In this document: positions 1,860 to 33,215 of the stretch, in pieces
Numbering within the stretch: the first letter of the stretch is position 1
How the letters are laid out: every line of letters begins with the position of its first letter
From: a virus
Length of the DNA: 64,000 nucleotides
Direction: 5' to 3' (one strand)
Virus genome (UHGV): UHGV-1682877
Program-made: the position numbers and the translations under genes
The notes under the pieces: generated by a model
The model's database searches: none
Told to the model about the DNA's origin: nothing
What the model saw: only the letters and a program-made list of their open reading frames with translations

Positions 1860-1871
1860 GGAGATAAAACA

Positions 1872-2099
1872 ATGAACAATAAGTATACAAATTGGGATGA
1901 ACTTTGTGATTTAATCATTCACTTTGGCGGTGAATATAATATTGATGCAGATGAATCTGATGAAAATCATTATTTTATCTGCCCTGAGTGCGGAGAGCCT
2001 ATTTATAATGGCGATTTTGCTGAGTCTGATTTTCTAAACAATAATAATCTTAGTTGCCCTGTTTGTGGAACCACTGCTGCTGATATGTTTGGAGGTTGA
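1872..2099 (+). CDS. small zinc-ribbon protein
   Basis: CPECG ... CPVCG pairs. Confidence 0.5.
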   Translation: MNNKYTNWDELCDLIIHFGGEYNIDADESDENHYFICPECGEPIYNGDFAESDFLNNNNLSCPVCGTTAADMFGG

Positions 2100-2105
2100 T
2101 TATTA

Positions 2106-2564
2106 ATGAGTGTTGCTAAATCTTATGAAAATTTTACCAAACTGTCTGAACCCTATGAAGAAAATGGCAAGATGTATATTCAGCTTCAGAATCCCAAAAC
2201 TGGTACTGTCCGCAAAGCAAGATGGTATGAAGAAACAAAAGTAAAGAAAACTAATAGCGGAAATCCTAATCTTAAAAGAGTGCGCGGTTTCAGCAAAGGC
2301 CCTATTCTTGTAGTTCGCAATATTAAAACTCATGCGGATGAACTTTGGTGTAAAGAATCCAATGCAAGATACGCAGTAGGTATTGGTTGGCATTTTGTTT
2401 CTGAAGAAGAACTTCCCACAGAAATGCCCAAAAACCTCAAATATGTACTTCTTACTTGGGATGAATTTAAAGGCAAAGATGATTTTCATTCTAAAACCTC
2501 TAAGCAACTCGCCGCAATTATTACTCGCAAACTTGAAGCTAATAAAACTATTACTTTTTGTTAA
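2106..2564 (+). CDS. hypothetical protein
   Basis: ORF track. Confidence 0.45.
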   Translation: MSVAKSYENFTKLSEPYEENGKMYIQLQNPKTGTVRKARWYEETKVKKTNSGNPNLKRVRGFSKGPILVVRNIKTHADELWCKESNARYAVGIGWHFVSEEELPTEMPKNLKYVLLTWDEFKGKDDFHSKTSKQLAAIITRKLEANKTITFC

Positions 2565-2574
2565 GGAGGACTAA

Positions 2575-2745
2575 ATGAATATTGCAAAAATTGTAACTGA
2601 TTTTATCCAGTCTGGCGAAATTCAGGAATTGGCAAATAGCCAGCCTGAACATAAAGAAGCTTTTATTACAGGTGCTACTTGGGCAGCTTGTATGATTGCT
2701 ATGAAATGCGTTGAAGCAGAACAGAAGAAGGAGGATAAAGAATGA
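2575..2745 (+). CDS. hypothetical small protein (56 aa)
   Basis: ATG preceded by RBS aaggagg; ATGA overlap with next gene; below track threshold. Confidence 0.35.
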   Translation: MNIAKIVTDFIQSGEIQELANSQPEHKEAFITGATWAACMIAMKCVEAEQKKEDKE

Positions 2746-3029
2746 AAGCCATTTATAAAGCACATGGCGTTGATTTTTGGGAATGGGATACAACTTGGAC
2801 TAAAGAAGAAGCCTTACAATCTTTAAAAGATTTTTTTAAATCTATTAATCATAATGTTATAATTTTTAGTGCTGATAAACTTAAATATGGTTTTTACATT
2901 GAATCTGAATGTGCTTGGGTTGCACATATCTTTTATGGCGGTATTTTAGTAATTGATAAAGATGATTATTATTTTTATTCTTATTATCATAAGAATAAAT
3001 TTAAAGAATCTTTTGGAGGAATTGAGTGA
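2742..3029 (+). CDS. hypothetical protein
   Basis: ORF track, overlapping-stop operon. Confidence 0.45.
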   Translation: MKAIYKAHGVDFWEWDTTWTKEEALQSLKDFFKSINHNVIIFSADKLKYGFYIESECAWVAHIFYGGILVIDKDDYYFYSYYHKNKFKESFGGIE

Positions 3030-3316
3030 AACATTCAGTATTTGTTATTTGTGATACATCTGCTTCTCCAAAGTTGACTTATCTGACTCATAATGGTAAA
3101 ATTTGGACATCCAATTTAGAAGAAGCCGCAATTTGGTTTAACAAAACAAACGCTCAGTTATATATTGAAAAATTTGTTACAGAGATTTTTCATCGCCAAA
3201 TAGAGGCAATTAATAGAGAAGGAATCAATAAATTTACATCAGCAAAATATAATACAGTTTATGAAAATTACTTTCGATTGAAACGAATTTATAAACCTTT
3301 GGAGGTATCTGTATGA
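3026..3316 (+). CDS. hypothetical protein
   Basis: ORF track. Confidence 0.45.
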   Translation: MKHSVFVICDTSASPKLTYLTHNGKIWTSNLEEAAIWFNKTNAQLYIEKFVTEIFHRQIEAINREGINKFTSAKYNTVYENYFRLKRIYKPLEVSV

Positions 3317-3534
3317 GAACAAGATGTATTCTTTATAAAATTGATGAAAACTATAAAAACTCTTATTTGGGCTATGATTTTCTTAATATGACTACATATT
3401 TTACGCCTTCTTCTTCTACTGCTTTTATTTTTAATTCTGTAAAAATTGCAGAAAATTACCTCAAAACGCACAATCTTCAGCTAAACATTCAGACTATTTA
3501 TAATGAAAGGAATATTGAAAATGAGTGGTTTTAA
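3313..3534 (+). CDS. hypothetical protein
   Basis: ORF track. Confidence 0.4.
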   Translation: MRTRCILYKIDENYKNSYLGYDFLNMTTYFTPSSSTAFIFNSVKIAENYLKTHNLQLNIQTIYNERNIENEWF

Positions 3535-3742
3535 GACTATTGATAATCAGTCCACCTTGATTACAGTTTGCGGTGAATGTCCTTTTGCTTCTAAAAAGAC
3601 ATATGAATATACTAGAAAAAATCCTCATGACCCCTATGGAGATGTACAGTACATCTTTGAAAAGAAATGTGAAAGATATAATACTATTGTACCTGATACT
3701 TTGCCGGTTTGTGAAGCTATGGAATTTTGTTATAATGATTAA
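3503..3742 (+). CDS. hypothetical Cys-containing small protein
   Basis: ORF track. Confidence 0.4.
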   Translation: MKGILKMSGFKTIDNQSTLITVCGECPFASKKTYEYTRKNPHDPYGDVQYIFEKKCERYNTIVPDTLPVCEAMEFCYND

Positions 3743-3756
3743 AGGAGCTGATGATT

Positions 3757-3972
3757 ATGACTTATCAATATTATGAGTATAACATTGTATTGAAAAATAA
3801 TGAAATTCGCCAAGGTATTATTAGTGCGGAAGATTATTATTCTGCTCTTGATGATATTATCCATCAGTATAATAATATTAAATCTATTCTATTGTCAGAA
3901 ATTGATTCTCTTGGTAGTGTAAGTTTTTCTGAAGAAATTATTAATGAAATCAAAAGAAATGAGGTAGTTTAA
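3757..3972 (+). CDS. hypothetical protein
   Basis: ATG 3757 after RBS aaaggag. Confidence 0.4.
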   Translation: MTYQYYEYNIVLKNNEIRQGIISAEDYYSALDDIIHQYNNIKSILLSEIDSLGSVSFSEEIINEIKRNEVV

Positions 3973-3973
3973 C

Positions 3974-4216
3974 ATGGAAACTCATCACGGAATTATTAAT
4001 CATACTGAGCATTATTCTCTTGAAATCAATAGATTTATGAACGCTCTTGATGCAGTAATTGAATCTGCTATTGATTATGGCCAAGCAGAAGAAACAGATG
4101 AAGAAAGATTAACTCTTAAAACTCTTGATGATAATATTAATCTTTTGTTTAGAAAGTTGGGGATTTCTGCCGATTGGTACGCTCGCAATGGGCATCTTAT
4201 CAATAGGATTAAGTAA
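3974..4216 (+). CDS. hypothetical protein
   Basis: ORF track. Confidence 0.4.
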   Translation: METHHGIINHTEHYSLEINRFMNALDAVIESAIDYGQAEETDEERLTLKTLDDNINLLFRKLGISADWYARNGHLINRIK

Positions 4217-4223
4217 ATAAAAC

Positions 4224-4262
4224 AAAGGTCAACAGATTTTGTAACACTGTTGACCTTTTAAA
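4224..4262 (+). terminator. rho-independent terminator overlapping next promoter -35
   Basis: aaaggtcaacag/ctgttgaccttt hairpin plus T-run. Confidence 0.55.
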
Positions 4263-4286
4263 AATTTTATGGTATAATATTTATAG
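4250..4286 (+). promoter_or_regulatory. repeated promoter family copy
   Basis: ttgacc-17-tataat then atttatagaaaataaaaaaggag. Confidence 0.5.
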
Positions 4287-4311
4287 AAAATAAAAAAGGA
4301 GTTTTAAAAGT

Positions 4312-18829: not shown

Positions 18830-20053
18830 TTGGCTTTTGATTTTAAACCTATTACAAAAATTTGTTTAAATATTACAGAAATGTGCCAGTGTGCTTGTCC
18901 TTTTTGTTTTGCAGAATATCACCCTCATAGAATATCTTACCAAGTTGCAAAGGATGCGGCAGACTGGATTATTAAAAATTCAGAATTAACAGGAGAAGTA
19001 GGATCTATCGGTTTTTTTGGCGGTGAACCGCTTCTTGAATGGGATACGATTATTGTTCCACTTACCAAGTATATTAAAGATGAGCGAGGATTAAAAGATT
19101 TTGAATTGGGTGTTACGACAAATTGTCTTTTGCTTGATGAAGAAAAGTTAAAATTTATGAAAAAATATGACTTTGGTTTACTATGCTCTATTGATGGAGC
19201 AAAAGAAACTCAAGATTATAATAGACCTTGCCGCAATGGACAAAGTAGCTTCGATATTATTGATGAAAAGATTCCTTTAATTCTAAAATATTTTCCAGAT
19301 ACTTTAATGCGTTCTACTATTATTCCCGCAACATGTGAACATTATTTTAAAAATTTAGAGTATGGATGGAATAAAGGATTCTATCATAGTTTTACAATTA
19401 TTAATCAATTTGAAGAATGGCCCGAAGATAAAAGAAAAATTCTTGAAGAGCAAGTTAGAAAATTTTCTAATTATTTAATTACATGTTTTAGAGAAGGATT
19501 GCCTTTTATGCGCCAACGAACTCTTGAACAAGCAATTAATAAAATAGTTGGAACAAATCTTCATTTTGCTCAAGGTAATGTTGAAAGAATTAAATTTGAT
19601 GATTTAGGAAGATGTTGTGGACTTGGTAGTGGATATGGTGCTATTAATTATGAAGGAGACATTTTTACTTGTCAAGAAGCAGTAAGCCGAGAAAAAGATA
19701 AAAATATTTTTTATATTGGAAATATTTATACTGGTATTGACAAAGAGCGTCAACAAAAATTATTTGATGATGTATATGCTAATGGTGGAAATGTTTATAA
19801 TTCTGTCGATAAAAATAAGTGTAAAGAATGTCCAATAGAAGCTAGCTGTAATATGAATAGTTGTTTAGTTAATAATTATTTAGAAAGACAATTATTTGAC
19901 ATTCAAGCAGATGCAATGTGTTGGTGGAATAATCTTATGGCGAAAGAAGCTCAATATATTTGTTATATACTTGGTACAGAAAATAATGAATATTTTAAAG
20001 ATTATTTTAAATGGGTAATTACCTCACAAGGAGGGACACTTAGCAATGATTGA
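18830..20053 (+). CDS. radical SAM enzyme with C-terminal SPASM-like Cys cluster
   Basis: CQCACPFC (CxxxCxxC), GGEPLL, C-terminal CKECPIEASCNMNSC; TTG start 18830 after RBS aaggagg. Confidence 0.75.
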   Translation: MAFDFKPITKICLNITEMCQCACPFCFAEYHPHRISYQVAKDAADWIIKNSELTGEVGSIGFFGGEPLLEWDTIIVPLTKYIKDERGLKDFELGVTTNCLLLDEEKLKFMKKYDFGLLCSIDGAKETQDYNRPCRNGQSSFDIIDEKIPLILKYFPDTLMRSTIIPATCEHYFKNLEYGWNKGFYHSFTIINQFEEWPEDKRKILEEQVRKFSNYLITCFREGLPFMRQRTLEQAINKIVGTNLHFAQGNVERIKFDDLGRCCGLGSGYGAINYEGDIFTCQEAVSREKDKNIFYIGNIYTGIDKERQQKLFDDVYANGGNVYNSVDKNKCKECPIEASCNMNSCLVNNYLERQLFDIQADAMCWWNNLMAKEAQYICYILGTENNEYFKDYFKWVITSQGGTLSND

Positions 20054-21263: not shown

Positions 21264-21349
21264 GTGGGCGTGATGAAATAGGAAAACATATCGCACTTAA
21301 AATGCGCTGCTAATCTAGCTTGTGGGTTCGAGTCCCATCGCCCACACCA
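21264..21349 (+). tRNA. tRNA-Leu (anticodon TAA)
   Basis: acceptor gtgggcg/cgcccac, loop cttaaaa, long variable arm, CCA. Confidence 0.65.
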
Positions 21350-21350
21350 T

Positions 21351-21390
21351 CTTTAAAACTGATACTCTTTACTATTAGTTTTAAAGATAA
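21351..21390 (+). other. perfect 12 bp inverted-repeat hairpin between tRNAs
   Basis: atctttaaaact ... agttttaaagat. Confidence 0.5.
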
Positions 21391-21413
21391 CAATGAACTT
21401 GAGTTTACTGATA

Positions 21414-21491
21414 TGCGTCTGTAACTCAACTGGATAGAGTAACTGCCTTCTAAGCAGTAAGCCAGGGGTTCGAGTCCCTTCAGGCGTACCA
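21414..21491 (+). tRNA. tRNA-Arg (anticodon TCT)
   Basis: loop cttctaa, T-arm aggggttcgagtccctt, CCA. Confidence 0.65.
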
Positions 21492-21676
21492 AGCAGAACT
21501 ATAATAGGCAACAAAAGGAAATAGCTGATGTGAAAGGCATCTTGTCTTGCTGACATGACAATAAACTTTGAACGGGCGTATAATGCGTATCGTGCCTGCG
21601 GGTGTAGAGTCAGAAAAGTAGGGGAATAATTGAGGAGCAGCTATAGGTGAGGCCCCACCTCCACCTTCCTTAATAT

Positions 21677-21768
21677 GGGGCAATGGCAGAGTTTGGCTTA
21701 TTGCACTTGTCTTGAAAACAAGCAAACTAGCAATAGTTTCACTGGTTCAAATCCAGTTTGCCCCGCCA
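21677..21768 (+). tRNA. tRNA-Ser (anticodon TGA)
   Basis: acceptor ggggcaa/ttgcccc, loop cttgaaa, long variable arm, CCA. Confidence 0.65.
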
Positions 21769-21772
21769 ATAA

Positions 21773-21846
21773 GCAGGTATAGTTTAATGATAGAACTCTG
21801 GACTTCCACTCCAGCGATGCGGGTTTGATTCCCGTTACTTGCTCCA
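21773..21846 (+). tRNA. tRNA-Gly (anticodon TCC)
   Basis: loop cttccac, T-arm gcgggtttgattcccgt, CCA. Confidence 0.65.
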
Positions 21847-21909
21847 TAAAGATACTCACAGCAATTTATTTTTTATAATGGGTATAAAAAAATAAAGTAT
21901 CTTGTATTT

Positions 21910-21985
21910 GCTAACGTGGCGCAACAGGTAGCGCAGCGGCCTTGTAAACCGCAGGTTAAGAGTTCAAGTCTCTTCGTTAGCTCCA
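21910..21985 (+). tRNA. tRNA-Thr (anticodon TGT)
   Basis: acceptor gctaacg/cgttagc, loop cttgtaa, CCA. Confidence 0.65.
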
Positions 21986-21987
21986 AT

Positions 21988-22063
21988 GGTTCGCTAGTTC
22001 ATTAGGTAGAACACTTGCCTTTTAAGCAAGATGTGCTGGGTTCAAATCCCAGGCGAGCCACCA
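21988..22063 (+). tRNA. tRNA-Lys (anticodon TTT)
   Basis: loop cttttaa, T-arm ctgggttcaaatcccag, CCA. Confidence 0.7.
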
Positions 22064-22437
22064 TTAGTCTTATCATACAGACGTAAAATAAATGAGTACC
22101 CCAGATAATGCTGAACTGGGTATCCGGGTATCGGGAGAATTAGTCTGGCAACTGTTGAAGCGACGATACTGCGTGACCAGGCATAAGGGCGACCTAAGTC
22201 GTTAGCTATGGGTAAACAGGTTGATAGCCGCATAGTAAAATGTTTCCTTGCGTCATTAAAATGCAAGGCGTTATAGGAGAGACGGCGGAGCATTACTCAT
22301 CTCCACTCCTTCTGCTACGAGAAGTAGAAAATCAAGGCTTCTGAGAAATGCTAATGAGAATGGTCAACCTCTGATTAAAAAAGGACTAAAGCTAGCTTAG
22401 GTTTTAGGTTATCCTCCTTACGAGGGAAAACCTTATT
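22064..22437 (+). ncRNA. structured non-coding region, candidate novel ncRNA
   Basis: ~370 nt with no RBS-supported ORF, locally GC-richer, multiple hairpins (ccttgc/gcaagg, cttct/agaag, nested ggtt-cctc/gagg-aacc). Confidence 0.3.
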
Positions 22438-22522
22438 TGCCAGAATGTTGGAATTGGTAGACAAAGAAGTCTCAAAAACTTTCGCTTTATGCGTGCGGGT
22501 TCGAATCCCGCTTCTGGTACCA
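22438..22522 (+). tRNA. tRNA-Leu (anticodon CAA)
   Basis: acceptor gccagaa/ttctggt, loop ctcaaaa, long variable arm, T-arm gcgggttcgaatcccgc, CCA. Confidence 0.65.
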
Positions 22523-22734: not shown

Positions 22735-24258
22735 ATGGAAAATAAGATGCTTAATATTTTGAAGGAAAAGAATACTCATTCTATCACTGAGAACGGCGGT
22801 TTGACTTATAATTCTACTATGAATGGAATTATGGATTTGTTTGCTCTTGGTGGTGCTTATCGAAATCGCTCAGATGATGATTGTATTTTTCTTTTTAAGA
22901 AGGCTTTTGAGGAAGATATTTCTTATGCTTTGAAGTGTCTCTTTTATTTGCGAGACGTACGCGGTGGACAGGGAGAACGCAGATTTTTTAAGGTCGTAAC
23001 TTCTTGGTTGGCAGTTAATCACACCGAGGAAATGCGTAGAAATCTGAAGTATGTTCCTGAGTATGGTCGCTGGGATGATTTGTATGCTTTTGTTGATACT
23101 CCGCTTGAGGCAGATGCTTTTAAGACTATGTATCATCAGCTTGCTCTTGATGTTCAGTGTAAAACTCCTTCTCTTTTGGCTAAGTGGTTGAAGTCTGAAA
23201 ATACTTCTTCTGCAGAATCTCGTATGCTTGGAGCTAAAACCAGAATGGCTTTTAATATGTCTCCTAAGCAGTATCGCAAGATTCTCTCTATTCTTCGTGA
23301 AAGAATTAGAGTTTTGGAAAGACTGATGAGTGAAAACCGTTGGGATGAAATTGAATTTGATAAGATTCCTTCTAAGGCAGGTCTAAAGTATCGCAATGCT
23401 TTTGCAAAGCACGATATTGAAAGAGAAAAGTCTAATAAGGTAACTTATGAAGAGTTTGTAAAGGATTCTAATACTAAGGTCAATGCTGATACTTTGAATC
23501 CCGCAGATGTAGTTCATGCTGTTGTTTCTAAATTTCCCTATTATAGAGGAAATTTTAATGGAACTGATGTGGAGAGAGCTGCACTCAATAAGTATTGGGA
23601 TAATCTAAAGGATTATTTTAATAATGCTGTTTTTGACGGTGTTGCTGTCGTTGATACTTCTGGTTCTATGTGTGGTTTTTATGGTAGTGAGAAAACTATT
23701 GCACCTATTGATGTAGCTATTTCTCTTGGTATGTATTGTGCTGAGAAGTGTAATCCCAATTCTCCCTGGTATGGACATTATATTACTTTTTCCCGAACTG
23801 CAAGATTGGTACCTGTTGAAGGTATTGATTTTGTTGATAAGGTGCGTAGAATTTATCAAAAGAATCTTTGTGAGAATACCAACATTAAAAGTATTTTTGA
23901 TTTGCTATTGAGCAATGCTATTAAATATAATATTCCTAATGAAGAAATGCCTAAAAACATTGTAATCATTAGTGATATGGAATTTGATTATTGCGCTGGT
24001 TACTATAATAGTGATGAATACAAGTCTGAAATGGAAAAGATTATGCAAGTTTGGAACTCTCATGGTTACACTACTCCACATTTGATTTTCTGGAATGTTG
24101 ACGCTCGAAATGATAATATTCCCATGAAGATGAAGGATGGTATTACTTTTATTTCTGGTTATTCTGCGGTAACTTATGAAATGTTGATGACTGGTAAAAC
24201 TGGTTTTGATTTGGTTTTGGAAAAGTTGAACAATAAGAGATATGAGGTAATCAAGTAA
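22735..24258 (+). CDS. vWA/MIDAS-domain protein with helical N-domain (DUF2828-like; possibly TROVE/Ro60-like)
   Basis: DTSGSM MIDAS motif near residue 305; N-terminal ENGGLTY...DLFALGGAYR...RDVRGGQGERR. Confidence 0.5.
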   Translation: MENKMLNILKEKNTHSITENGGLTYNSTMNGIMDLFALGGAYRNRSDDDCIFLFKKAFEEDISYALKCLFYLRDVRGGQGERRFFKVVTSWLAVNHTEEMRRNLKYVPEYGRWDDLYAFVDTPLEADAFKTMYHQLALDVQCKTPSLLAKWLKSENTSSAESRMLGAKTRMAFNMSPKQYRKILSILRERIRVLERLMSENRWDEIEFDKIPSKAGLKYRNAFAKHDIEREKSNKVTYEEFVKDSNTKVNADTLNPADVVHAVVSKFPYYRGNFNGTDVERAALNKYWDNLKDYFNNAVFDGVAVVDTSGSMCGFYGSEKTIAPIDVAISLGMYCAEKCNPNSPWYGHYITFSRTARLVPVEGIDFVDKVRRIYQKNLCENTNIKSIFDLLLSNAIKYNIPNEEMPKNIVIISDMEFDYCAGYYNSDEYKSEMEKIMQVWNSHGYTTPHLIFWNVDARNDNIPMKMKDGITFISGYSAVTYEMLMTGKTGFDLVLEKLNNKRYEVIK

Positions 24259-24312: not shown

Positions 24313-25374
24313 ATGATATTATTAAATGATGATAATAGACACAGAGATTTTACAGGTGTAACTCGTTTTCACAATGCAGGTTATTTTGGAGAAAGAGTAA
24401 ATGCCGCAAGTGGAGAAACCTGGGATGTTAATAGATATAATCCAGATAATTTAGTAAGAAATTGCTTAAAGGATAAACAATTTTCAGATGAACATCCAAT
24501 AAATACTGCGGCAACATTTTTTCAAGTAGCTCCAAAAGCTCATCTATTTATGCTTTATTCCATTGATGGCAGTTATGGTAGTGGAGATAATTATAACTCT
24601 AAATTTTTTAATGAATCAGTAGAAATTATTGAAAAATATAATATTACTAATATGTTTACCTCTTTAAATTGTAGTAGACATACTAAATTTTTTGAAGATT
24701 TAAAAAATTGGTATATTAAACATCCTAGTTTTAAACCCTTTTGGTGCGCAGGAAATGATTCTTCTAAAAAATATAATCCAATTATGGAAATTGAAGAAGT
24801 AATTGGTGTAGCCGCTTATACTTTAATGGTAAATGGTACAGTAAATCCTGCTTATTATTCTAGTATTAGTAGTTATGTAGACTTTTCTGCACCTAGTATG
24901 ATTTATTTAAATCCGCAAGCTACAAAACCAGACGCAGCAACTTATTCCAATTCTGGTACTTCTTTTTCTACACCTTGGTTATGTGGAATGAGCTGTTTAG
25001 TAGATGATTTCTTTATTGATAAAAAAGGATTACCTCTAACAAGAGAAGGAATGATTCAATTCTTTAAAGATAATTGTAAAGATATAGGCGATAAGGGTAT
25101 TGATCCAAAAACAGGATTTGGCGCAGTAATTTTACCTGAACCAAATTCTATTGATATTGATAAATATTATAATATTGGGAGGACAAATATGAGTACATTA
25201 GATAAATTTAAAGATAAAAATGATATTTCTAATTGGGCTAAAGCAAGTATTGAATGGGCTGTTAATACAGGTATTCTTCAAGGTGACGATAAAGGCTATC
25301 TTTTACCCAAAGCTTACCTAACTAGAGAGCAAATGGCAGTTATGTTAGAGCGTTTTAAAAATATTATAAAATAA
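24313..25374 (+). CDS. subtilisin-like serine protease with C-terminal SLH-like wall-binding domain
   Basis: SNSGTSFSTPW catalytic Ser motif; C-terminal WAVNTGILQGDDKGYLLP...LTREQMAVML. Confidence 0.6.
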   Translation: MILLNDDNRHRDFTGVTRFHNAGYFGERVNAASGETWDVNRYNPDNLVRNCLKDKQFSDEHPINTAATFFQVAPKAHLFMLYSIDGSYGSGDNYNSKFFNESVEIIEKYNITNMFTSLNCSRHTKFFEDLKNWYIKHPSFKPFWCAGNDSSKKYNPIMEIEEVIGVAAYTLMVNGTVNPAYYSSISSYVDFSAPSMIYLNPQATKPDAATYSNSGTSFSTPWLCGMSCLVDDFFIDKKGLPLTREGMIQFFKDNCKDIGDKGIDPKTGFGAVILPEPNSIDIDKYYNIGRTNMSTLDKFKDKNDISNWAKASIEWAVNTGILQGDDKGYLLPKAYLTREQMAVMLERFKNIIK

Positions 25375-25380
25375 TTTTAA

Positions 25381-25410
25381 GGGAGTCAAAATGACTCCCT
25401 TTTTATTTTT
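25381..25410 (+). terminator. rho-independent terminator
   Basis: gggagtca/tgactccc hairpin plus T-run. Confidence 0.65.
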
Positions 25411-25479
25411 TTAAAAAAATATTATATAATATATATAGAAAGTTAAGGAATAAATAAATAAGAAAGAAGTTGAAATTTT

Positions 25480-25749
25480 ATGATTTATAGAAAAAGCAAA
25501 TACAGTAAAGATCAGACTGCAATTTGGCAAGGTGAAACTGCGGTTATTCTTGCTCAATCAGCAGAAGCTATGACAATAGATGAAATTAAAAACAATAGTA
25601 TTCAATTAACAGGTGTTTCTACTCAAAAAATGGCTAGGATTCTTGGGCATTTGATTGAAATGGGTATGGTAACAAAAGCAAAAAGCAAAAGTGGAAAAAT
25701 GGTCTATAAATCTTTGGCAGTAATGGAAATGCAAGGTTATGAAATTTAA
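25480..25749 (+). CDS. hypothetical protein
   Basis: ORF track. Confidence 0.4.
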   Translation: MIYRKSKYSKDQTAIWQGETAVILAQSAEAMTIDEIKNNSIQLTGVSTQKMARILGHLIEMGMVTKAKSKSGKMVYKSLAVMEMQGYEI

Positions 25750-25768
25750 ATAAAGGAGTTTGATATTT

Positions 25769-27037
25769 ATGGCATACTATGGTTTAGTAACTAAAATTGA
25801 AAATGTAAGAAAAGACCCTAATTCTGATAGACTCTATTTGGCTGATTGTTTTAGAGAAGGAGTTATTGTAGGCCCTAATATGAAGGAAAGCGAGTTGGTT
25901 CTTTATCTTCCTACTGATGGAGCTATTGAGCGTTGGTTTGGTGATGAGTTTAAACTTTTCCGCAAGAATTTAGATGGTACCGCGCAAGGTGGTTATTTGG
26001 AAAATAATGCTCATATTAGAGCAATTAAGCTAAGAGGTAATGAATCTTCTGGTATTGTTATTTCTTATTCTACTATTGTTGAGCATTTTGGTGAGCAAAA
26101 TTGGAAAGATGGCGATCAGGTCACTGAAATTAATAATAAGCTATTTTGTTATAAATATATTCCTAAACCTTCGGCTATTCCTCGCACTACTCCTAAAACT
26201 TCTTATAAAGGTCGTAAAGCAGCTGGAATTAAGTATCCTGATTTTGCCATGCATATTGATACTGCCCAATTAGCTTACAATCTTGGAATTTTTAGACCTG
26301 GAGATAAAATTAATCTAACCCTTAAAATGCATGGAACTAGCCAGCGTAGTGCATATACTTGGGCAGAATATCCTATGTCTTGGTTTAGAAAGCTATTTCA
26401 CATGAAACCTAAGAGAAAGTTGCAGTATGTTTTAGGTACTCGTAGAACTGTTGTTACTACTGATGGGGTAGGTTATTATGGTAATGACAAATTTAGATTT
26501 AGTCACCATGAAGCTTTAAAACCTTATCTCGATGAAGGTATGGAAGTTTTTTATGAAGTAGTTGGTTGGTATGGAGCAAAAGAAAATGAAACTATTATGC
26601 CAATTGTAGATAATAGTAAAATTAATGACAAGAAATTTATGAAAAAGTTTGGTAAGTATACTACTTTTTCTTATGGTTGTACTCCTGGTCATTCTGCAAT
26701 GTGGATTTATAGAATTACTTCTCATAATGGTGAATATGAATATTCTCCAGAGGAAATTACTACTTGGTGTAATGAATATGGTTTTAATCGTGTTCCTATT
26801 ATTGAGGATTTTGAATTTACTACTGTTGATGACTTGCTCGCTAAAATTGACAAATATTTTGAAGATATTGTTGACCCAGTTGGTTTAACTCATGTTAAAG
26901 AAGGTGTAGTAGTTAGAATTGCTAATAGACGTACTTTTACTGCATTAAAACAAAAAACCTGGGAGTTTAAAGTCCTTGAAGGTCTAGTTAAAGATACTGA
27001 AACCCAGCCCGATATGGAAGAAGCACAGGAGGTTTAA
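25769..27037 (+). CDS. Rnl2-family RNA ligase with N-terminal tRNA-binding OB domain
   Basis: N-terminal LVTKIENVRKDPNSDRLYLADCF (tRNA-binding fold); KMHGTS motif I like T4 Rnl2 KIHGTN; EGVVVR motif IV; KQK motif V. Confidence 0.6.
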   Translation: MAYYGLVTKIENVRKDPNSDRLYLADCFREGVIVGPNMKESELVLYLPTDGAIERWFGDEFKLFRKNLDGTAQGGYLENNAHIRAIKLRGNESSGIVISYSTIVEHFGEQNWKDGDQVTEINNKLFCYKYIPKPSAIPRTTPKTSYKGRKAAGIKYPDFAMHIDTAQLAYNLGIFRPGDKINLTLKMHGTSQRSAYTWAEYPMSWFRKLFHMKPKRKLQYVLGTRRTVVTTDGVGYYGNDKFRFSHHEALKPYLDEGMEVFYEVVGWYGAKENETIMPIVDNSKINDKKFMKKFGKYTTFSYGCTPGHSAMWIYRITSHNGEYEYSPEEITTWCNEYGFNRVPIIEDFEFTTVDDLLAKIDKYFEDIVDPVGLTHVKEGVVVRIANRRTFTALKQKTWEFKVLEGLVKDTETQPDMEEAQEV

Positions 27038-27039
27038 AT

Positions 27040-27489
27040 ATGACTTTAGAAATTATGCACAATGACATGATGCAGGCTTTGAAGAATGGTGATACTCAAA
27101 AGAAGAATGTACTTTCCAATATGATTGGTGAAGTACAAAAAGCAGCAATTACGCCAAAAGGCAGAATTGAAATTACCGAAGAGCTTGTTAATAATACTTT
27201 AATCAAGTATCAAAAGATGATTCAAGAAATGATTGATACTTGTCCAGAAAACCGCAAAGAGTTATTTATTCAATATAATCTTGATATGGCTGTTGTAAAG
27301 CAGTATGCACCACAACTTCTCACTGACAAAAAAGCAATTAAAACTCAAATTGAAAAGATGCTTGCAGAAAATGAGCTTGATGCAATTAAGGCAAATAAAG
27401 GTAGAGCAATGAAACTTTTTGCTCCTGTTTTTAAGGGTAAGGCAGATATGAAAATTGTTAATCAAATTGTGTCGGAGGTAATGACCTAA
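27040..27489 (+). CDS. YqeY/GatB-domain protein
   Basis: architecture matches YqeY family, C-terminal GKADMKIVNQIVSEVM. Confidence 0.6.
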   Translation: MTLEIMHNDMMQALKNGDTQKKNVLSNMIGEVQKAAITPKGRIEITEELVNNTLIKYQKMIQEMIDTCPENRKELFIQYNLDMAVVKQYAPQLLTDKKAIKTQIEKMLAENELDAIKANKGRAMKLFAPVFKGKADMKIVNQIVSEVMT

Positions 27490-27490
27490 T

Positions 27491-27670
27491 ATGTTTCATT
27501 TAATAATGACGATTATTTGGGGTATCTTAATGTGTGTTAATGGAGTTTTGCTATGTGAAACAATTTTACACAATAGATATAAAGAAAAGAAAATGCGTAT
27601 TTTCTGGTTCCTTTTTTGCGTATTTTGGTTTATTTTTGAAATCTTGCGGCTCGGAGGCTTTATTCTTTGA
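27491..27670 (+). CDS. small hydrophobic protein (about 59 aa), putative
   Basis: ATG-initiated ORF below track threshold; two hydrophobic segments. Confidence 0.3.
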   Translation: MFHLIMTIIWGILMCVNGVLLCETILHNRYKEKKMRIFWFLFCVFWFIFEILRLGGFIL

Positions 27671-27885
27671 AAATTGTAATTGATAAAAAAGATTTTATGG
27701 AATATATTCGTGCTATGGTAGATAAGGATTTTGACAATTTTATGTTTGCAAATCCTTATGCGACGAAAGAAGATTATATTAATTTATATTATTCTTTTGA
27801 TACAATTCATAATTTAGATGATATTTGTGAAGAAGAATATTGTAAAAGAATTATTAATGGTGAAATAGAAGAAATTGAAGATTGA
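27667..27885 (+). CDS. hypothetical protein
   Basis: ORF track; start may be ATG about 27699. Confidence 0.35.
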   Translation: MKIVIDKKDFMEYIRAMVDKDFDNFMFANPYATKEDYINLYYSFDTIHNLDDICEEEYCKRIINGEIEEIED

Positions 27886-27890
27886 AAGAA

Positions 27891-27937
27891 TTAAGGGCAA
27901 AGATTAAGATCTTTTGCCCTTAATTTATTTTTTTAAA
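27891..27937 (+). terminator. rho-independent terminator
   Basis: ttaagggcaaa/tttgcccttaa hairpin plus T-run. Confidence 0.6.
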
Positions 27938-27985
27938 AATTTATATTATAATATATATAGAAAGTTAAGAAAGGAATTGATATTT

Positions 27986-28699
27986 ATGAATAAGAGTAAA
28001 GTTTATTGTTTTACTGACCTTCATGGCAATTCAAATTTGTTTAAGCAGATTAAAAATTTCATTCAAGCAGAAGATAAAGTGTTCGTGCTGGGTGATGTAA
28101 TTGACAGAGGGACAGAAGGTTGGAAAATACTTAAAGAAATTTTAAAAGATGAAAGATTTACTCTTCTTAAAGGAAATCATGAACAAATGTTAGTAGATTC
28201 TGGAAGAGAATTTTTAAAAAATGAAAGATGTCTATATGGAGATGATATTTATCGTCACATGAATAATGGAGGTTTATCTACTTTACTAGACTGGTCTAAA
28301 GAAAAAAATGCTATTGAGTATTTAAATTTAATTAATAAACTTCCAGTTTATGAACAATACACTAATAAAAATGGAATTAAAATTCATTTAAGTCATGCAG
28401 GTTTTTCTCCTAATAATATTTCTGGTGATGAATTTGATTTTCTTTGGAATAGATTACATTATAAATTTAGATGTTTAATTAATCCAAATGAATTAATTAT
28501 TCATGGCCATACCCCAATTCCTCTAATGATAGAAGATATAGGAGAATTTCGCAATCCTCCCAAATATGAAGGTGGAGCTTGTTGGTATAATAATAATCAA
28601 AAGGTTAATCTTGATTTAGGTACTCATTGGAGTAAGCAAATTATCCTTTTTGATTTAGATACTTTTGATGAACATATCTTTTCTGCTCAAGGAGAATAA
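27986..28699 (+). CDS. calcineurin-like metallophosphoesterase (PP2A/ApaH-like)
   Basis: FTDLHGN, VLGDVIDRG, KGNHE, IIHGHTP. Confidence 0.8.
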   Translation: MNKSKVYCFTDLHGNSNLFKQIKNFIQAEDKVFVLGDVIDRGTEGWKILKEILKDERFTLLKGNHEQMLVDSGREFLKNERCLYGDDIYRHMNNGGLSTLLDWSKEKNAIEYLNLINKLPVYEQYTNKNGIKIHLSHAGFSPNNISGDEFDFLWNRLHYKFRCLINPNELIIHGHTPIPLMIEDIGEFRNPPKYEGGACWYNNNQKVNLDLGTHWSKQIILFDLDTFDEHIFSAQGE

Positions 28700-28701
28700 T
28701 T

Positions 28702-29106
28702 ATGATACTATTAATACTAGGATTAACATTACCTTTTACTGGAGCAATAATTTTAGGTTGTTTTATATATGATTATGATGAATATAAACTAGATTGTAAA
28801 ATTGTAAGGAAACATAAATATGTAGTTTTAAAATTAAAAGAATTTATTTCTTTCTATAATTTAAGTCCAGAAAATTATGAACTACAAAAATATTCGGTTG
28901 TTTTTTTAAAGCCTTTCTCTACACGAAAATATTTAACAGACAATAATATACGTATTATTTTTACAAATTATGTAGAAATGTTAAAATATAAAATTTGGAA
29001 AAAGACAGAAATTAAAAAAATAAATACAGAAAAAGAAAGAAAAGAACTTAAAGAATATTTTGAAATTGTAAAAAAACAAATTGAGGAGTTTGATAAAAAT
29101 GTCTAA
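28702..29106 (+). CDS. hypothetical membrane protein
   Basis: N-terminal hydrophobic segment. Confidence 0.4.
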   Translation: MILLILGLTLPFTGAIILGCFIYDYDEYKLDCKIVRKHKYVVLKLKEFISFYNLSPENYELQKYSVVFLKPFSTRKYLTDNNIRIIFTNYVEMLKYKIWKKTEIKKINTEKERKELKEYFEIVKKQIEEFDKNV

Positions 29107-29374
29107 AGACCCTAGAAAATATGAAATGCATGATTTTTATTGTATGAATTGCGGAAAGAAGTCAATGTCAATTCCTCGATTAAGAGGACGTTTTAGAGAA
29201 GTTGGGCATAAGAAAGTTATGTATTGCCCTCATTGTAAAGAAACTGTTAATATGGTAGAATGTAGAAATGATGAAGAAGCGTATAATTTTAAACTAGATT
29301 TTGAAGAAGGACTTTTTAAAGAAGAAGCACAAAATAGTATTTCTTATGTAAAGGAGTTTGGTATTTATGATTAA
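29099..29374 (+). CDS. zinc-ribbon protein
   Basis: CMNCG ... CPHCK. Confidence 0.45.
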   Translation: MSKDPRKYEMHDFYCMNCGKKSMSIPRLRGRFREVGHKKVMYCPHCKETVNMVECRNDEEAYNFKLDFEEGLFKEEAQNSISYVKEFGIYD

Positions 29375-29870
29375 TTTGCATATTCTTTGCGGTATTCCTG
29401 CTTCCGGTAAATCTACCTGGGCAAAACAACAGAATGGTAAAATTATCTCAAGAGATGAAATCCGCAAGAATTATGTAGGCGAAAATCCTGGAAAAAATTA
29501 TTTTAGTAAAGAAAAACAGGTATATAAAGAAATGATTGCAAATATTAAAATCGCAATTAAAGAAAATGTAGAAAATATTTATATAGATGCGACTCATATT
29601 GATATTGTTTCAAGAACTAAACTTTTAAACAATTTTTTTAATCTGAAAGATAAGAATAATATTAATCTTACTTTTGATTATTTTCCTATTCTTTTAGATG
29701 TTGCTTTAAAAAGAAATTCTGAAAGAGAAGGTTTTGCTAAAATTCCAGAAGAAGCAATAAAAAATTTTTATTTTAAATCTTCTATTCCTTCCAAAGATGA
29801 GATGAATAAATATCTTGATTGGGGTTTTCATAATGTGAATACTATTTTGCATTATACTGAGGAGGTGTAA
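29367..29870 (+). CDS. pnk: polynucleotide kinase (T4 Pnk kinase-domain-like)
   Basis: GIPASGKSTWA P-loop; KRNSEREGFAKIPEEAIKNFY parallels T4 Pnk KRNSKRGTKAVP..MY. Confidence 0.7.
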   Translation: MINLHILCGIPASGKSTWAKQQNGKIISRDEIRKNYVGENPGKNYFSKEKQVYKEMIANIKIAIKENVENIYIDATHIDIVSRTKLLNNFFNLKDKNNINLTFDYFPILLDVALKRNSEREGFAKIPEEAIKNFYFKSSIPSKDEMNKYLDWGFHNVNTILHYTEEV

Positions 29871-29872
29871 TA

Positions 29873-30415
29873 ATGGTTTGGTTTACCAGTGATCTTCATC
29901 TAGGCCATAATAAGCCCTTTCTTTATGAACCAAGAGGGTTTAAGAATATTCAAGAACATGATAACGCAATTATTGAAAATTGGAATAAAATTATTCGTCC
30001 TAATGATAAAGTTTATGTGCTTGGCGATTTGATGCTAAATGATAATGAAGCAGGAATTGAAAAAATTAAACAATTAAAAGGACAAATTTATGTAGTTAGA
30101 GGAAACCATGATAGTGAAGTTCGTGTAAATTTATATAATAATTGTAACAATATTATTAAAGTAACTGAAGGTCAATTTTTAAGATATGGTAAATATCATT
30201 TTTATTTAAGTCATTATCCTACACTTTGTAGTAATTTTGATAATGAGAAACCTCTTAAAGCAAGAATGATTAGTTTGTGCGGACATTCTCATAGTCAGGA
30301 TGCTTTTGCGAATTGGGATAAAGGTCTTATTTATCATGTAGAATTAGATGCTCATAATAATTTCCCTGTTTCTATTGATTCGATTATTAAGGATATTAAA
30401 AATAGAATTAAGTAA
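29873..30415 (+). CDS. calcineurin-like metallophosphoesterase, candidate 3'-phosphatase partner of Pnk
   Basis: TSDLHLGH, VLGDLMLND, RGNHD, LCGHSH. Confidence 0.7.
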   Translation: MVWFTSDLHLGHNKPFLYEPRGFKNIQEHDNAIIENWNKIIRPNDKVYVLGDLMLNDNEAGIEKIKQLKGQIYVVRGNHDSEVRVNLYNNCNNIIKVTEGQFLRYGKYHFYLSHYPTLCSNFDNEKPLKARMISLCGHSHSQDAFANWDKGLIYHVELDAHNNFPVSIDSIIKDIKNRIK

Positions 30416-30421
30416 TAAATT

Positions 30422-30453
30422 AAAGACCCTAGAGTGCTTTTGCTCTAGGGTCT
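30422..30453 (+). terminator. terminator-like hairpin
   Basis: agaccctagagtgc tttt gctctagggtct. Confidence 0.45.
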
Positions 30454-30586
30454 TCGTGCATACTCGTGGCAGACCGTGTCGCCGATTTTTCGCGCCTCTA
30501 GCAATTTTTTACGCAAATACCAAGAATTTTATTTTTCTCAGAATTTATGATATAATTATAATATAAAATAAGATAGGAGAATTTTA

Positions 30587-31024
30587 ATGAGTTTAAGAAA
30601 AACAATTAATCTTTTACCCGTAGAATTTAATTACACAAATAATTCAATTGAGGCAATAGTTTATTATGAACGAAAATACTATACTGGGACTGCTACTTGT
30701 CATCCTGATGATATGGACTTTTTCTCAACCAAAGTAGGTCAAACAATAGCTCACAAAAGAGCAATTATTAATACTTTAAAAGATATTAAAGAAAGAGCTA
30801 ATATCGAATATAACGCTGTAAAAAGATTTTATAACGATATTTTAAGAGAAAATAAAAAATGTGAGTATACAATCATTATTAAAGAAATAGTAAGACTAAA
30901 ACGGCAAATTAATAAGTATTTGGGTTATATTAAAACAGAAGAAAAAGAATTAAATACATATTTAAAAGCTCAAAGTAAAGTAATTACTTCTCTAAAAAGA
31001 CAAAGAAAGGCCATAAATAATTAA
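30587..31024 (+). CDS. hypothetical protein
   Basis: ORF track. Confidence 0.45.
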   Translation: MSLRKTINLLPVEFNYTNNSIEAIVYYERKYYTGTATCHPDDMDFFSTKVGQTIAHKRAIINTLKDIKERANIEYNAVKRFYNDILRENKKCEYTIIIKEIVRLKRQINKYLGYIKTEEKELNTYLKAQSKVITSLKRQRKAINN

Positions 31025-31078: not shown

Positions 31079-32350
31079 TTGAACAATAGGAGAGTGGAAA
31101 TTATTATTAAATTCTACGATACTTGTAGTCTTTTATTAGCCGGGGAATCAGCTTTTGAAGATAATGAAAAATTTATCATTTCTTCTATTACTTTAAAAGA
31201 ATTAGAAAGAATTAAAACCGCGGCAAATAAAGATTCTGATATAAAATATTCCGCAAGACTTTTGCTTCATTTATTTGAAAAATATCCAAATAATTATTCT
31301 GTTAAAATTCATCAAATAAATTATGAATACATTTTAGATAAAATGAATTTTGATATTAATGATGATGCTAGAATTTTGTCTGATGCTTGGAATGAATTTG
31401 AAACAAATAAATGTTTAGAATTTATAACTAATGATTTAAGTTTAAAACATATTGCTTTATGTTTGTTTCCTAAAGAAAATGTTTCTTCTGTTGAAGAAAA
31501 TTTAGATACTTATAGTGGACTTGCAGAAATTACTGCTAGTGAAGAATTAATTTCTGAATTTTATGAAAATCCTAACTATAATCATTTTAATCTTAAAAAA
31601 GGAGAATATTTACTTCTAAAAAATCCTGATAATTTTGATGAACTTATAGATGTGCGGGTTTGGACAGGAGAGACTTATCGTTATTTAAAATTTCCTACTT
31701 TTGATTCTACCTGGTTTGGAAAAGTACAACCATATCAAGGAGATATATATCAAAAATGTGCTTTTGATAGTTTAGCTAATAATAAAATTACTTTACTACA
31801 AGGCCCAGCAGGAGTAGGAAAATCTTACATTTCTTTAGCTTTTTTAATGTATATGTTAGAAAAAAATAGAATAGATAAAATTATAATCTTTTGTAATACA
31901 GTGGCAACTATTAATTCCGCTAAATTAGGGTTTTACCCAGGTACAAAAGACGATAAATTACTTGACTCGCAAATTGGTAATATGCTTTCTGCCAAATTAG
32001 GCGGTAAAGAAGGTGTTCTTCGTATGATGGAAGAAGATAAATTAGTTTTATTGCCTTTTAGCGATATTAGAGGTTATGATACTAGCGGAATGAACGCAGG
32101 TATTTATATAACAGAAGCACAAAATTTAGACAGAACTTTAATTAAATTAGCTCTTCAACGTATTGGTGAAGATTGTATTTGTATTATTGATGGTGACGCT
32201 AAAACACAAGTTGACTCATTAGCTTATTCTGGTAATAATAATGGTATGAGAAGAATGTCTAAAATTTTTAGAGGTTCTGATATTTATGGAGAAGTAACTT
32301 TAAATAATATTCATAGATCTAAAATAGCAGAACTTGCAGAATTAATTTAA
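31079..32350 (+). CDS. phoH: PhoH-like ATPase with N-terminal PIN domain
   Basis: Walker A LLQGPAGVGKSY; PIN-like N-terminus. Confidence 0.75.
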   Translation: MNNRRVEIIIKFYDTCSLLLAGESAFEDNEKFIISSITLKELERIKTAANKDSDIKYSARLLLHLFEKYPNNYSVKIHQINYEYILDKMNFDINDDARILSDAWNEFETNKCLEFITNDLSLKHIALCLFPKENVSSVEENLDTYSGLAEITASEELISEFYENPNYNHFNLKKGEYLLLKNPDNFDELIDVRVWTGETYRYLKFPTFDSTWFGKVQPYQGDIYQKCAFDSLANNKITLLQGPAGVGKSYISLAFLMYMLEKNRIDKIIIFCNTVATINSAKLGFYPGTKDDKLLDSQIGNMLSAKLGGKEGVLRMMEEDKLVLLPFSDIRGYDTSGMNAGIYITEAQNLDRTLIKLALQRIGEDCICIIDGDAKTQVDSLAYSGNNNGMRRMSKIFRGSDIYGEVTLNNIHRSKIAELAELI

Positions 32351-32397: not shown

Positions 32398-32420
32398 AAA
32401 CAAAAGAAAGGAGAGTGTAT

Positions 32421-33215
32421 ATGAATACACAGCCTGTATCTTATTTACAAACAGATGCAAGATGGAAAAATATTAGTTATTCAGCGAAAGGTGAATCAAC
32501 TACAATTGGCGCTTCTGGCTGCGGCCCCACCGCAATGTCTATGGTTTTAGCTACATGGGCAGATAAAAAAGTTACTCCAAAAACTGAATGTGCTTGGGCT
32601 TTAGCGCATGGTTATAAAGCTCCTCACCAAGGAACTTATTATGGATATTTTAAGCCTGCTGCTGCACGATACGGTTTAACAGCCTATATGTTGAATGGTG
32701 CAAATATTTATGGCAATAGTTCTAGTAAATATCATAATTTAGCAAAAGCTGAAATTGATAAAGGTAATTTAGTTATAGCTTGTATGGGCAAAGGATTATG
32801 GACAAGTAGTGGTCATTTCATTTTAGTGTGGAATATTCAAGGAAATACTATTTATATTAATGACCCTAATAGTACAAAAACCGCACGCACTAGAGGTAAT
32901 TATAGTCTTTTCAAACAACAGGTAAAATATTACTTTATAATTGAAAAACCTAAAACAAATAATAATAATAATAAACCTACAATTAAACAAGAGGAGGATG
33001 AAGACATGACTCAAGAAAAATTTAATGAAATGATGAATAATTATTTAGTTCAATTAGCTAAACAAAATGCTGATTGGGGTAAAGATGAATTAAATTGGGC
33101 AGTTTCTATGGGACTAATTAAAGGTGATGAAACTGGCAAACTAATGCCTAACAAGTTTTTAACTAGACTAGAAGGCGTCACTATAATGAAGAGATTATAT
33201 GATAAACTTTGTTAA
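32421..33215 (+). CDS. C39-like (papain-fold) peptidase with SLH-like wall-binding domain, endolysin candidate
   Basis: GCGPTAMSMVL Cys motif, SGHFILV His; C-terminal WAVSMGLIKGDETGKLMP...LTRLEGVTIM. Confidence 0.55.
   Translation: MNTQPVSYLQTDARWKNISYSAKGESTTIGASGCGPTAMSMVLATWADKKVTPKTECAWALAHGYKAPHQGTYYGYFKPAAARYGLTAYMLNGANIYGNSSSKYHNLAKAEIDKGNLVIACMGKGLWTSSGHFILVWNIQGNTIYINDPNSTKTARTRGNYSLFKQQVKYYFIIEKPKTNNNNNKPTIKQEEDEDMTQEKFNEMMNNYLVQLAKQNADWGKDELNWAVSMGLIKGDETGKLMPNKFLTRLEGVTIMKRLYDKLC

Follow-up and report, generated by a model that had tools for sequence, protein, structure and literature searches.

We analysed a stretch of 64,000 nucleotides (hereafter the window) of the UHGV virus genome UHGV-1682877, an uncultured phage of about 138 kb with an AT-rich genome (about 30% GC). 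The interval 25769-30415 sits within a one-directional run of plus-strand genes and carries the candidate RNA-repair cluster described here, with a ligase, a YqeY protein, a polynucleotide kinase and two metallophosphoesterases, MPP1 and MPP2. Gene starts were assigned from ribosome-binding sites and homologue N-termini; for the zinc-ribbon gene mentioned below the mechanical open reading frame is given. The principal genes are the following.

25769-27037, plus strand: predicted Rnl5-type ATP-dependent RNA ligase, 422 amino acids, ATG start (mechanical open reading frame 25760-27037)
27040-27489, plus strand: YqeY/GatB-C-like protein, 149 amino acids, starting 3 nt past the ligase stop, with its own AGGAGG ribosome-binding site
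27986-28699, plus strand: MPP1, lambda-phosphatase/ApaH-like binuclear metallophosphoesterase, about 237 amino acids, start ATG 27986 (mechanical open reading frame from 27914)
29367-29870, plus strand: predicted stand-alone Pnk-type 5'-OH polynucleotide kinase, 167 amino acids, start ATG 29367
29873-30415, plus strand: MPP2, compact metallophosphoesterase, 180 amino acids (Metallophos_2, aq_1665-like; Metallophos_2 1.8e-9, phrog_547 6.5e-43)

A preliminary description of this DNA had named four of these genes, the ligase, YqeY, the kinase and the phosphoesterase behind it. All four proved to be real, on the plus strand and placed as claimed, and the ligase ATG at 25769 coincides with the start that it gave for the interval. 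Its inventory was incomplete, as it had overlooked the second phosphoesterase, MPP1 (27986-28699).

The ligase ATG lies 8 nt downstream of an AAGGAG sequence, and homologues start with MAY. The protein consists of an N-terminal Trbp111/PheRS-B2-like OB domain (about residues 1-135 in open reading frame numbering) and an adenylyltransferase domain, and has no C-terminal domain. The motifs reported earlier are present, namely KMHGTS (motif I, K189), EGVVVR (motif IV, E381-G382) and KQK (motif V, K397/K399, reported as KxK), together with E266 of motif III. K189, E266, E381/G382 and K397/K399 are invariant across 44 homologues (28-53% identity), and K189 is the predicted nucleophile. The protein reached the gathering cut-off of Pfam RNA_ligase PF09414 exactly (REL/Rnl2-type nucleotidyltransferase domain; 27.0 bits, cut-off 27), a family that also matches phage ligases bearing the PHA02142 OB domain, and it matched phrog_968 'RNA ligase' over its full length (1.5e-45). 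The window ligase gave no match to Pfam PF21189 (PHA02142 OB), whereas ligases of the type found in two of the IMG/VR loci treated below, L011 and L051, do match it.

Searched as a single sequence against PDB, the ligase returned only noise. A profile of the 44 homologues matched NgrRnl at 1.6e-11 and T4 Rnl2 only at 0.14. The NgrRnl match extends from the N-terminal end to the motif I lysine, and motif IV can be aligned too: K189 falls on NgrRnl K170 and EGVVV on the E312 motif, while D53 and K132 fall on NgrRnl D53 and K121 in the hidden Markov model alignment, read by eye. K132 is invariant in both alignments and D53 is invariant in close homologues and the majority residue in the 44-sequence alignment; NgrRnl R4 and R149 have no reliably placed counterpart in the window ligase. 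The nearest structural relatives of the ligase are RNA ligases. As judged from these profiles the ligase is of the Rnl5 type, distant and longer. The label 'Rnl2-type' that had been given to it does not hold, by profile or by domain architecture, as the C-terminal helical domain specific to Rnl2 is absent.

The ligase had also been credited with a tRNA-binding domain of its own. The OB domain is indeed present, and an N-terminal OB domain is a hallmark of the DraRnl/NgrRnl clade (PMC1807946); that of NgrRnl promotes lysine adenylylation through contacts with the ATP gamma-phosphate (PMC7261155). Because it is the signature module of every Rnl5, with a role in adenylylation, the OB domain gives no evidence of tRNA specificity, and the lesson is a general one: a 'tRNA-binding domain' on a ligase does not indicate its substrate.

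The kinase carries a P-loop (GIPASGKST), an SRDEIR motif with the Asp general base and an Arg, and a KRNSER lid, and it matched AAA_33 (6e-11) and phrog_505 'polynucleotide kinase' (2.8e-17). PSTK topped the PDB search made with the single sequence, but a profile of 32 homologues ranked T4 Pnk first (4.6e-17), followed by PSTK, Pnkp1 (1.8e-14) and the CthPnkp kinase domain (6e-14); an assignment as PSTK or KTI12 was rejected on this ground. What the protein shares with these PDB matches is the kinase core only. Residues G12, G17, K18, T20, S31, R32, D33, R36, D77, N120 and R123 are invariant in the family, and the 120 homologues listed are all stand-alone proteins of 149-186 amino acids. The window kinase, at 167 amino acids, likewise stands alone, with no HAD (DxDxT) 3'-phosphatase domain in the polypeptide. 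On its profile, the protein is a T4-Pnk-like kinase, as had been proposed.

MPP1 shows the motifs DLHG, GDVIDRG, GNHE and GHTP and matched Metallophos (5e-12), phrog_246 (NinI-like, 9e-31) and PDB 1g5b (1.4e-7). It also matched the phosphatase segment of phrog_8238, a phage family of kinase-metallophosphoesterase-ligase fusions, at 5e-8; against the CthPnkp phosphatase chain it gave no match at E <=0.1. A 2',3'-cyclic phosphodiesterase activity is known both for lambda phosphatase and for the CthPnkp phosphatase domain, itself lambda-like (PMC2190708, PMC3675462). Because MPP1 is lambda-phosphatase-like and matches phrog_8238, and because these two phosphatases cleave cyclic phosphates, we regard it as a candidate 2',3'-cyclic phosphodiesterase/3'-phosphatase and as a better candidate than MPP2 for healing the 3' end.

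In MPP2 the six metal-binding motifs are all invariant, and the predicted model has a pLDDT (predicted local distance difference test) score of 94.4. The kinase gene contains, in its 3' end, the MPP2 ribosome-binding site GAGGAGG, and MPP2 is translationally coupled to the kinase. The preliminary description had the phosphoesterase 3' of the kinase as a separate enzyme of the metallophosphoesterase rather than the HAD type, which stands, and compared it with that of bacterial Pnkp, which does not: MPP2 was rejected as a Pnkp-type phosphatase on its closest structures (aq_1665/MJ0936) and on a family generic among phages, and it is MPP1 that is Pnkp-like.

The remaining features of the cluster divide it into two parts.

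25379-25401, plus strand: terminator-like hairpin with T-run, ending the upstream subtilase-SLH gene; the sealing unit begins after it
25480-25749, plus strand: 89-amino-acid protein, first gene of the sealing unit, with a weak winged-helix match (Pfam TrmB, E 0.0036, below cut-off)
27491-27885, plus strand: two small open reading frames (59 amino acids, hydrophobic; 72 amino acids), no family match
27888-27926, plus strand: bulged intrinsic-terminator hairpin, then UUUAUUUUUUU, at the seam of the sealing and healing units, between the 72-amino-acid open reading frame and MPP1
28702-29106, plus strand: 134-amino-acid protein with hydrophobic N-terminus, no family match
29081-29374, plus strand: four-cysteine zinc-ribbon protein, about 97 amino acids (phrog_1257, 6.8e-11), overlapping the kinase start by 8 nt
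30423-30482, plus strand: strong 13-bp hairpin and a second hairpin with T-run (free energy -33.3 kcal/mol, z -4.8)

A consensus, gapless scan had given no internal terminator, and the interval was at that stage modelled as a single operon. This model was dropped when reading and folding the gap at 27886-27940 exposed the bulged hairpin at 27888-27926, which has a free energy of -19.3 kcal/mol and a z-score of -4.7, none of 200 shuffled sequences folding as stably. It is followed by an AT-rich, promoter-like stretch and then a ribosome-binding site. Because of this terminator hairpin the interval is taken as two transcription units. They are best read as a sealing unit (25480-27885), with the 89-amino-acid protein, the ligase, YqeY and the two small open reading frames, and a healing unit (27986-30415), with MPP1, the 134-amino-acid protein, the zinc-ribbon protein, the kinase and MPP2. 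The healing unit probably ends at the hairpins at 30423-30482, and the next gene is preceded by a promoter-like site (30535-30562).

YqeY, a YqeY/GatB-domain protein as had been claimed, matched PF09424 at 5e-15 (56.2 bits, gathering cut-off 27) over residues 6-146 of 149, and belongs with phrog_1460; the B. subtilis YqeY structure (PDB 1ng6) matched it at 3.2e-7. We did not retain it as a core member of the cluster, as it is found in only 7 of the 28 close relatives defined below; YqeY is a facultative member.

A scan yielded 417 related IMG/VR stretches, and the ligase search more than 6000 proteins. The closest clade comprises 28 IMG/VR loci whose ligase is 64-98% identical to that of the window; the locus at 98% (L013), a contig of 137.7 kb, represents the same phage as the window. 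In 23 of the 28 the kinase lies 3' of the ligase on the same strand, the remaining five reaching no further than 6.5 kb downstream. Of the 23 loci with the kinase, 18 have MPP2 immediately behind it; MPP2 lies 0.8 kb further in one and is beyond view in four that end at the kinase, i.e. it is immediately adjacent in 18 of the 19 relatives where its position is visible. MPP1 is present in 24 of the 28, and a DUF2828 protein lies upstream of the ligase in 23. A homologue of the 89-amino-acid protein is found upstream of the ligase in most close relatives, at 0.3-2.6 kb from the ligase start.

Where the window has the terminator, several relatives carry, between the ligase and MPP1, a nicotinamide adenine dinucleotide (NAD) salvage block (isochorismatase, Prs-like, NAPRTase, NAD synthase). 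In loci L003-L005 (ligase about 70% identical) vault-like (MVP_shoulder), RNase T, Band_7 and NAD-salvage genes are interspersed among the repair genes; examples are found at 1861-4302 and 11523-16288 of L003 and at 18384-19910 of L004. No homologue of the vault-like, RNase T, Band_7 or NAD-salvage genes was found across the 64-kb window. Genes for Prs and NAMPT are likewise found close to the ligase and Pnk genes in Bacillus phages and in the Mycobacterium phage LeBron.

More distant lineages show the same association with other parts. In the large Bacillus siphophages vB_BcoS-136, PBC2, Kirov and Thrax1 the ligase is 37-43% identical over its full length, and the order is a subtilisin-like gene, the ligase and, directly after it, a kinase-HD fusion; in vB_BcoS-136 the last two are labelled 'RNA ligase' and 'polynucleotide kinase' in GenBank. 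Among 51 distant IMG/VR loci (ligase about 40-44% identical), a kinase gene stands no more than 2.6 kb downstream in 25, and in 22 of them it is an open reading frame of at least 280 amino acids. A Pfam HD domain was detected in the kinase of two of three such IMG/VR open reading frames tested (none in L050) and of both Bacillus phages tested, and the motifs LHDxGK and H..AD were seen in all ten distant kinase sequences read by eye. Another 13 of the 51 loci have an MPP2-like gene directly 5' of the ligase, and in the one of these that was examined (L051) MPP1-like and Band_7 genes also lie upstream of it.

The ligase itself can be exchanged. L011, L008 and L009 have orthologues of the window kinase (41% identity in L011), MPP2 (about 60%) and PIN-PhoH genes, while the ligase slot of L011 (3466-4722) holds a member of another Rnl5 subfamily, with a PHA02142 OB domain and KIDGTS/EGLVFR motifs, for which the pairwise comparison with the window ligase gave an E of only 0.015; L008 (2864-4111) and L009 (294-1541) have the same type and order. 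A gene with a cREC_REC domain and an AAA gene lie just upstream in L011. In LeBron the ligase, gp85, is 4.3 kb from the polynucleotide kinase gp74. In L074 a CCA-adding enzyme (PolyA_pol head, tRNA_NucTran2_2, HD) stands directly upstream of the ligase homologue; the same locus has, 3' of the ligase, a gene for an 871-amino-acid P-type cation ATPase, odd for a phage (L074, 4788-6143 and 8138-10750). The association of ligase, kinase and phosphoesterase is conserved and has been rebuilt from different parts in several phage lineages. A healing-and-sealing pathway that functions would be expected to look like this, with the phosphoesterase fold and the ligase subfamily exchanged and the kinase-ligase link kept.

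From the folds, the catalytic motifs, the gene order, the translational coupling and the conserved or recombined synteny, we infer the enzymatic activities, the RNA (tRNA) substrate and the counter-defence role set out here. On balance we favour, by no means firmly, the view that the interval encodes a split-gene healing-and-sealing pathway for broken RNA in two adjacent units. RNA cut by metal-independent ribonucleases carries a 2',3'-cyclic phosphate on one side of the break and a 5'-OH on the other. The kinase would add a phosphate to the 5'-OH end, and MPP1, MPP2 or both would convert the 2',3'-cyclic phosphate or 3'-phosphate to a 3'-OH. The Rnl5-type ligase would adenylylate itself on K189, assisted by the OB domain, pass the AMP to the 5'-phosphate and join ends held in a nick-like arrangement, for example in a tRNA with a cut anticodon loop. 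The purpose would most likely be to undo, during infection, RNA cuts made by metal-independent host ribonucleases (anticodon nucleases, toxins), the module working alongside the 17 tRNA genes of the phage. That tRNA is the specific target of the pathway is a tentative proposal that we consider rather doubtful, and a role in tRNA counter-defence is plausible. The preliminary description had proposed a tRNA-repair module directed against host tRNA-cleaving systems; its observation is confirmed and its interpretation partly supported.

A stronger form of the tRNA proposal would make the long-form phage branch of Rnl5 (about 420 amino acids, with KMHGTS and EGVVVR) a dedicated tRNA-repair ligase that reverses anticodon-nuclease defences. 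The Trbp111-like OB domain would then recognise the broken tRNA, with the YqeY tRNA-binding protein assisting in some phages, and the partners would be the stand-alone Pnk and the metallophosphoesterases. We think this improbable; if it were true, the widespread Rnl5 family, the role of which is called uncharted (PMC5397189), would gain its first physiological substrate.

Several observations weigh against an RNA healing-and-sealing pathway. The window ligase scored 33.8 bits, over its N-terminal half only, with the curated DraRnl equivalog model TIGR02306 (cut-off 151.15), because of which it is placed in a distant Rnl5 subfamily and not as an equivalog, and its length exceeds that of NgrRnl by about 85 residues, which are spread over both domains. 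A distance of 3.6-10.8 kb separates the ligase from the kinase in the close clade, with the terminator between the units in the window, and synteny inside one clade is not independent evidence, as it reflects common ancestry as well as selection. Neither kinase nor MPP2 was found near the ligase in 12 of the 51 distant loci, nine of which have about 10 kb of downstream flank. The best curated matches of MPP1 are ApaH and the PrpA/B protein phosphatases, and it also resembles NinI. The nearest solved structures of MPP2 are the uncharacterised aq_1665 and the MJ0936 phosphodiesterase, and its family, in 1624 GenBank phage records, is generic and mostly without ligase or kinase. In the two cultured phages inspected no ligase or kinase was found near the MPP2-like gene, which adjoins Prs/NAMPT in a Staphylococcus Kayvirus and stands in a row of three metallophosphoesterases with DnaQ in a Schiekvirus.

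These facts about the phosphoesterases, with the NAD-salvage block that separates the ligase from MPP1, kinase and MPP2 in relatives and the terminator that divides the units, would suit genes that are mere neighbours in an early or auxiliary region and share no single pathway. The ligase and the kinase would each act alone, and the metallophosphoesterases would act on phosphoproteins (as lambda NinI), on Ap4A or Np4-capped RNA (as ApaH), or on ADP-ribose or cyclic-nucleotide immune signals. However, the translational coupling of kinase and MPP2 and their near-constant adjacency in the close clade argue against it, as do the MPP1-like and MPP2-like genes directly 5' of the ligase in another clade and the HD phosphoesterase fused to the kinase beside the same ligase family elsewhere, an arrangement typical of end-healing enzymes; we consider such independence unlikely. 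The repair of DNA or RNA-DNA hybrid breaks, with 3'-phosphate/5'-OH DNA ends or ribonucleotide-flanked nicks arising from replication or host nucleases, would accord with what is known of Rnl5. The characterised enzymes seal duplex nicks and require ribonucleotides solely on the 3'-OH side of the nick, their physiology is called uncharted, and DraRnl is linked to recovery from ionising radiation, possibly to DNA repair, its deletion delaying genome reassembly (PMC5397189). According to the title of Munir & Shuman 2017, cited in PMC6097658, T4 Pnk and HD-Pnk act on both DNA and RNA, and MPP2 has a weak match to PdeM, the ligase-associated DNA-damage endonuclease (TIGR04123, 2.7e-4, below cut-off). 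Such a role nevertheless seems to us more unlikely still, as the ligase is structurally closest to RNA ligases, the genes conserved around it have to do with RNA (tRNA genes, the DUF2828 protein, PIN-PhoH2, YqeY, and the CCA-adding enzyme in L074), and related Bacillus phages carry a separate DNA ligase a few genes away. That the module would mature or recycle phage RNAs, by processing or splicing the 17 tRNAs or other transcripts, and not counter a nuclease, is very improbable. The cluster does lie about 3 kb 3' of a tRNA block, a GIY-YIG endonuclease gene lies inside the other tRNA block, and fungal tRNA splicing uses healing-and-sealing enzymes (PMC6379707), but the tRNAs were called by ARAGORN and Rfam as ordinary uninterrupted genes, none containing an intron, and no splicing endonuclease was seen among the open reading frames scanned.

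Compared with known systems, the locus is a variant of the phage RNA-repair theme, in which a ligase of the Rnl5 type, a stand-alone Pnk, two separate metallophosphoesterases and, optionally, a YqeY are distributed over two units. The textbook case of phage RNA repair as counter-defence is T4 Pnkp with Rnl1 acting against PrrC. In both systems a tRNA-carrying phage encodes an ATP-dependent RNA ligase along with an enzyme for each end, a 5' kinase and a 3' phosphoesterase, and the T4 Pnk kinase domain is the top match of the window kinase profile. Bacterial Pnkp/Hen1 (Clostridium thermocellum Pnkp) is alike in combining a lambda-phosphatase-type metallophosphoesterase, comparable to MPP1, with a Pnk-type kinase. 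It is, however, one kinase-phosphatase-ligase polypeptide with an Rnl4 ligase and a Hen1 partner, whereas the window has separate genes and an Rnl5-type ligase. No Hen1 was found among the open reading frames scanned at 22.7-33.2 kb, and the model TIGR04075, used for the comparison with bacterial Pnkp, gave 17.9 bits (cut-off 750). To the Rnl5 prototypes DraRnl and NgrRnl the window ligase is about 15% identical; these cellular prototypes have no assigned partners, whereas the window ligase is linked to end-healing genes.

The Bacillus siphophages share with the window the ligase family, the preceding subtilisin-like gene and an end-healing kinase next to the ligase; they differ in having the HD phosphoesterase fused to the kinase C-terminus, where the window has a stand-alone kinase and two metallophosphoesterases, with YqeY and small open reading frames between the ligase and the healing genes. 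The HD-Pnk/ligase operon of Runella slithyformis likewise places a phosphoesterase and a Pnk beside a ligase (PMC6097658). The survey of Iyer et al. 2021 described phage RNA repair as an assembly of ligases, Pnk, phosphoesterases, tRNAs, TROVE proteins and NAD+ salvage, with calcineurin-like and HD phosphoesterase domains in a minority of phages (PMC7824862). It covered jumbo phages with Rnl1, Rnl2 and RtcB ligases, whereas the phage of the window, at about 138 kb, has a ligase of the Rnl5 type, a YqeY gene and a DUF2828 protein possibly related to TROVE/Ro-vWA proteins. We found no literature joining RNA repair with DUF2828 and YqeY. With several of them in Bacillus and Mycobacterium phages that have been cultured, the phage cassettes would allow the biological role of Rnl5 to be probed genetically. 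To our knowledge no biochemical study has dealt with an Rnl5-type ligase combined with a stand-alone Pnk and two metallophosphoesterases.

Around the cluster, the following features were recorded.

10813-13823: ten tRNA genes
21264-22522, plus strand: block of seven tRNA genes, including tRNA-Lys(UUU) at 21988-22063
22735-24258, plus strand: DUF2828/DUF7788 protein, 507 amino acids (phrog_850, labelled 'RNA-binding protein' in PHROGs), directly after the seven-tRNA block
31079-32350, plus strand: PIN-PhoH2 protein (predicted RNA helicase/RNase), 3' of the healing unit

The large tRNA complement noted earlier, tRNA-Lys included, is confirmed, with 17 genes called by ARAGORN and 16 by Rfam. The DUF2828 protein gave no match when searched by sequence against PDB, and a Y-RNA/YrlA-like partner for it was sought and dropped, as Rfam returned tRNAs only. 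Under the improbable reading of a dedicated tRNA-repair ligase, the repair module may work with this protein, and with the vault-like and Band-7 proteins of relatives, as a ribonucleoprotein-based repair platform. The PIN-PhoH2 gene is kept downstream of the healing unit across the clade and is also found in L008, L011 and L092. A homologue of the zinc-ribbon gene lies directly 5' of the kinase in L008, L009, L011, L032-L035 and L092; its family, phrog_1257, is annotated 'ribosome associated inhibitor A; zinc finger domain'. At the nucleotide level no cultured phage is close, as a megablast of 25000-31000 against GenBank phages gave no matches.

The tRNA at 13040-13112 was given a four-base anticodon (tgaa) by ARAGORN, which assigned it no identity, and scored 53 bits as a tRNA in Rfam; the four-base anticodon implies an 8-nt anticodon loop, and the tRNA may be frameshift-suppressor-like or the anticodon may be miscalled. 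The GIY-YIG endonuclease gene inside the first tRNA block lies at 12359-13006, and a radical-SAM protein gene (18794-20053) lies between the two blocks. SLH domains occur in the subtilase-like protein (24313-25374) and in a C39-like peptidase (32415-33215), and this suggests a host with an S-layer. The GC skew is positive over 1-60 kb and negative beyond about 60 kb, and this flip suggests a switch of gene or replication orientation.

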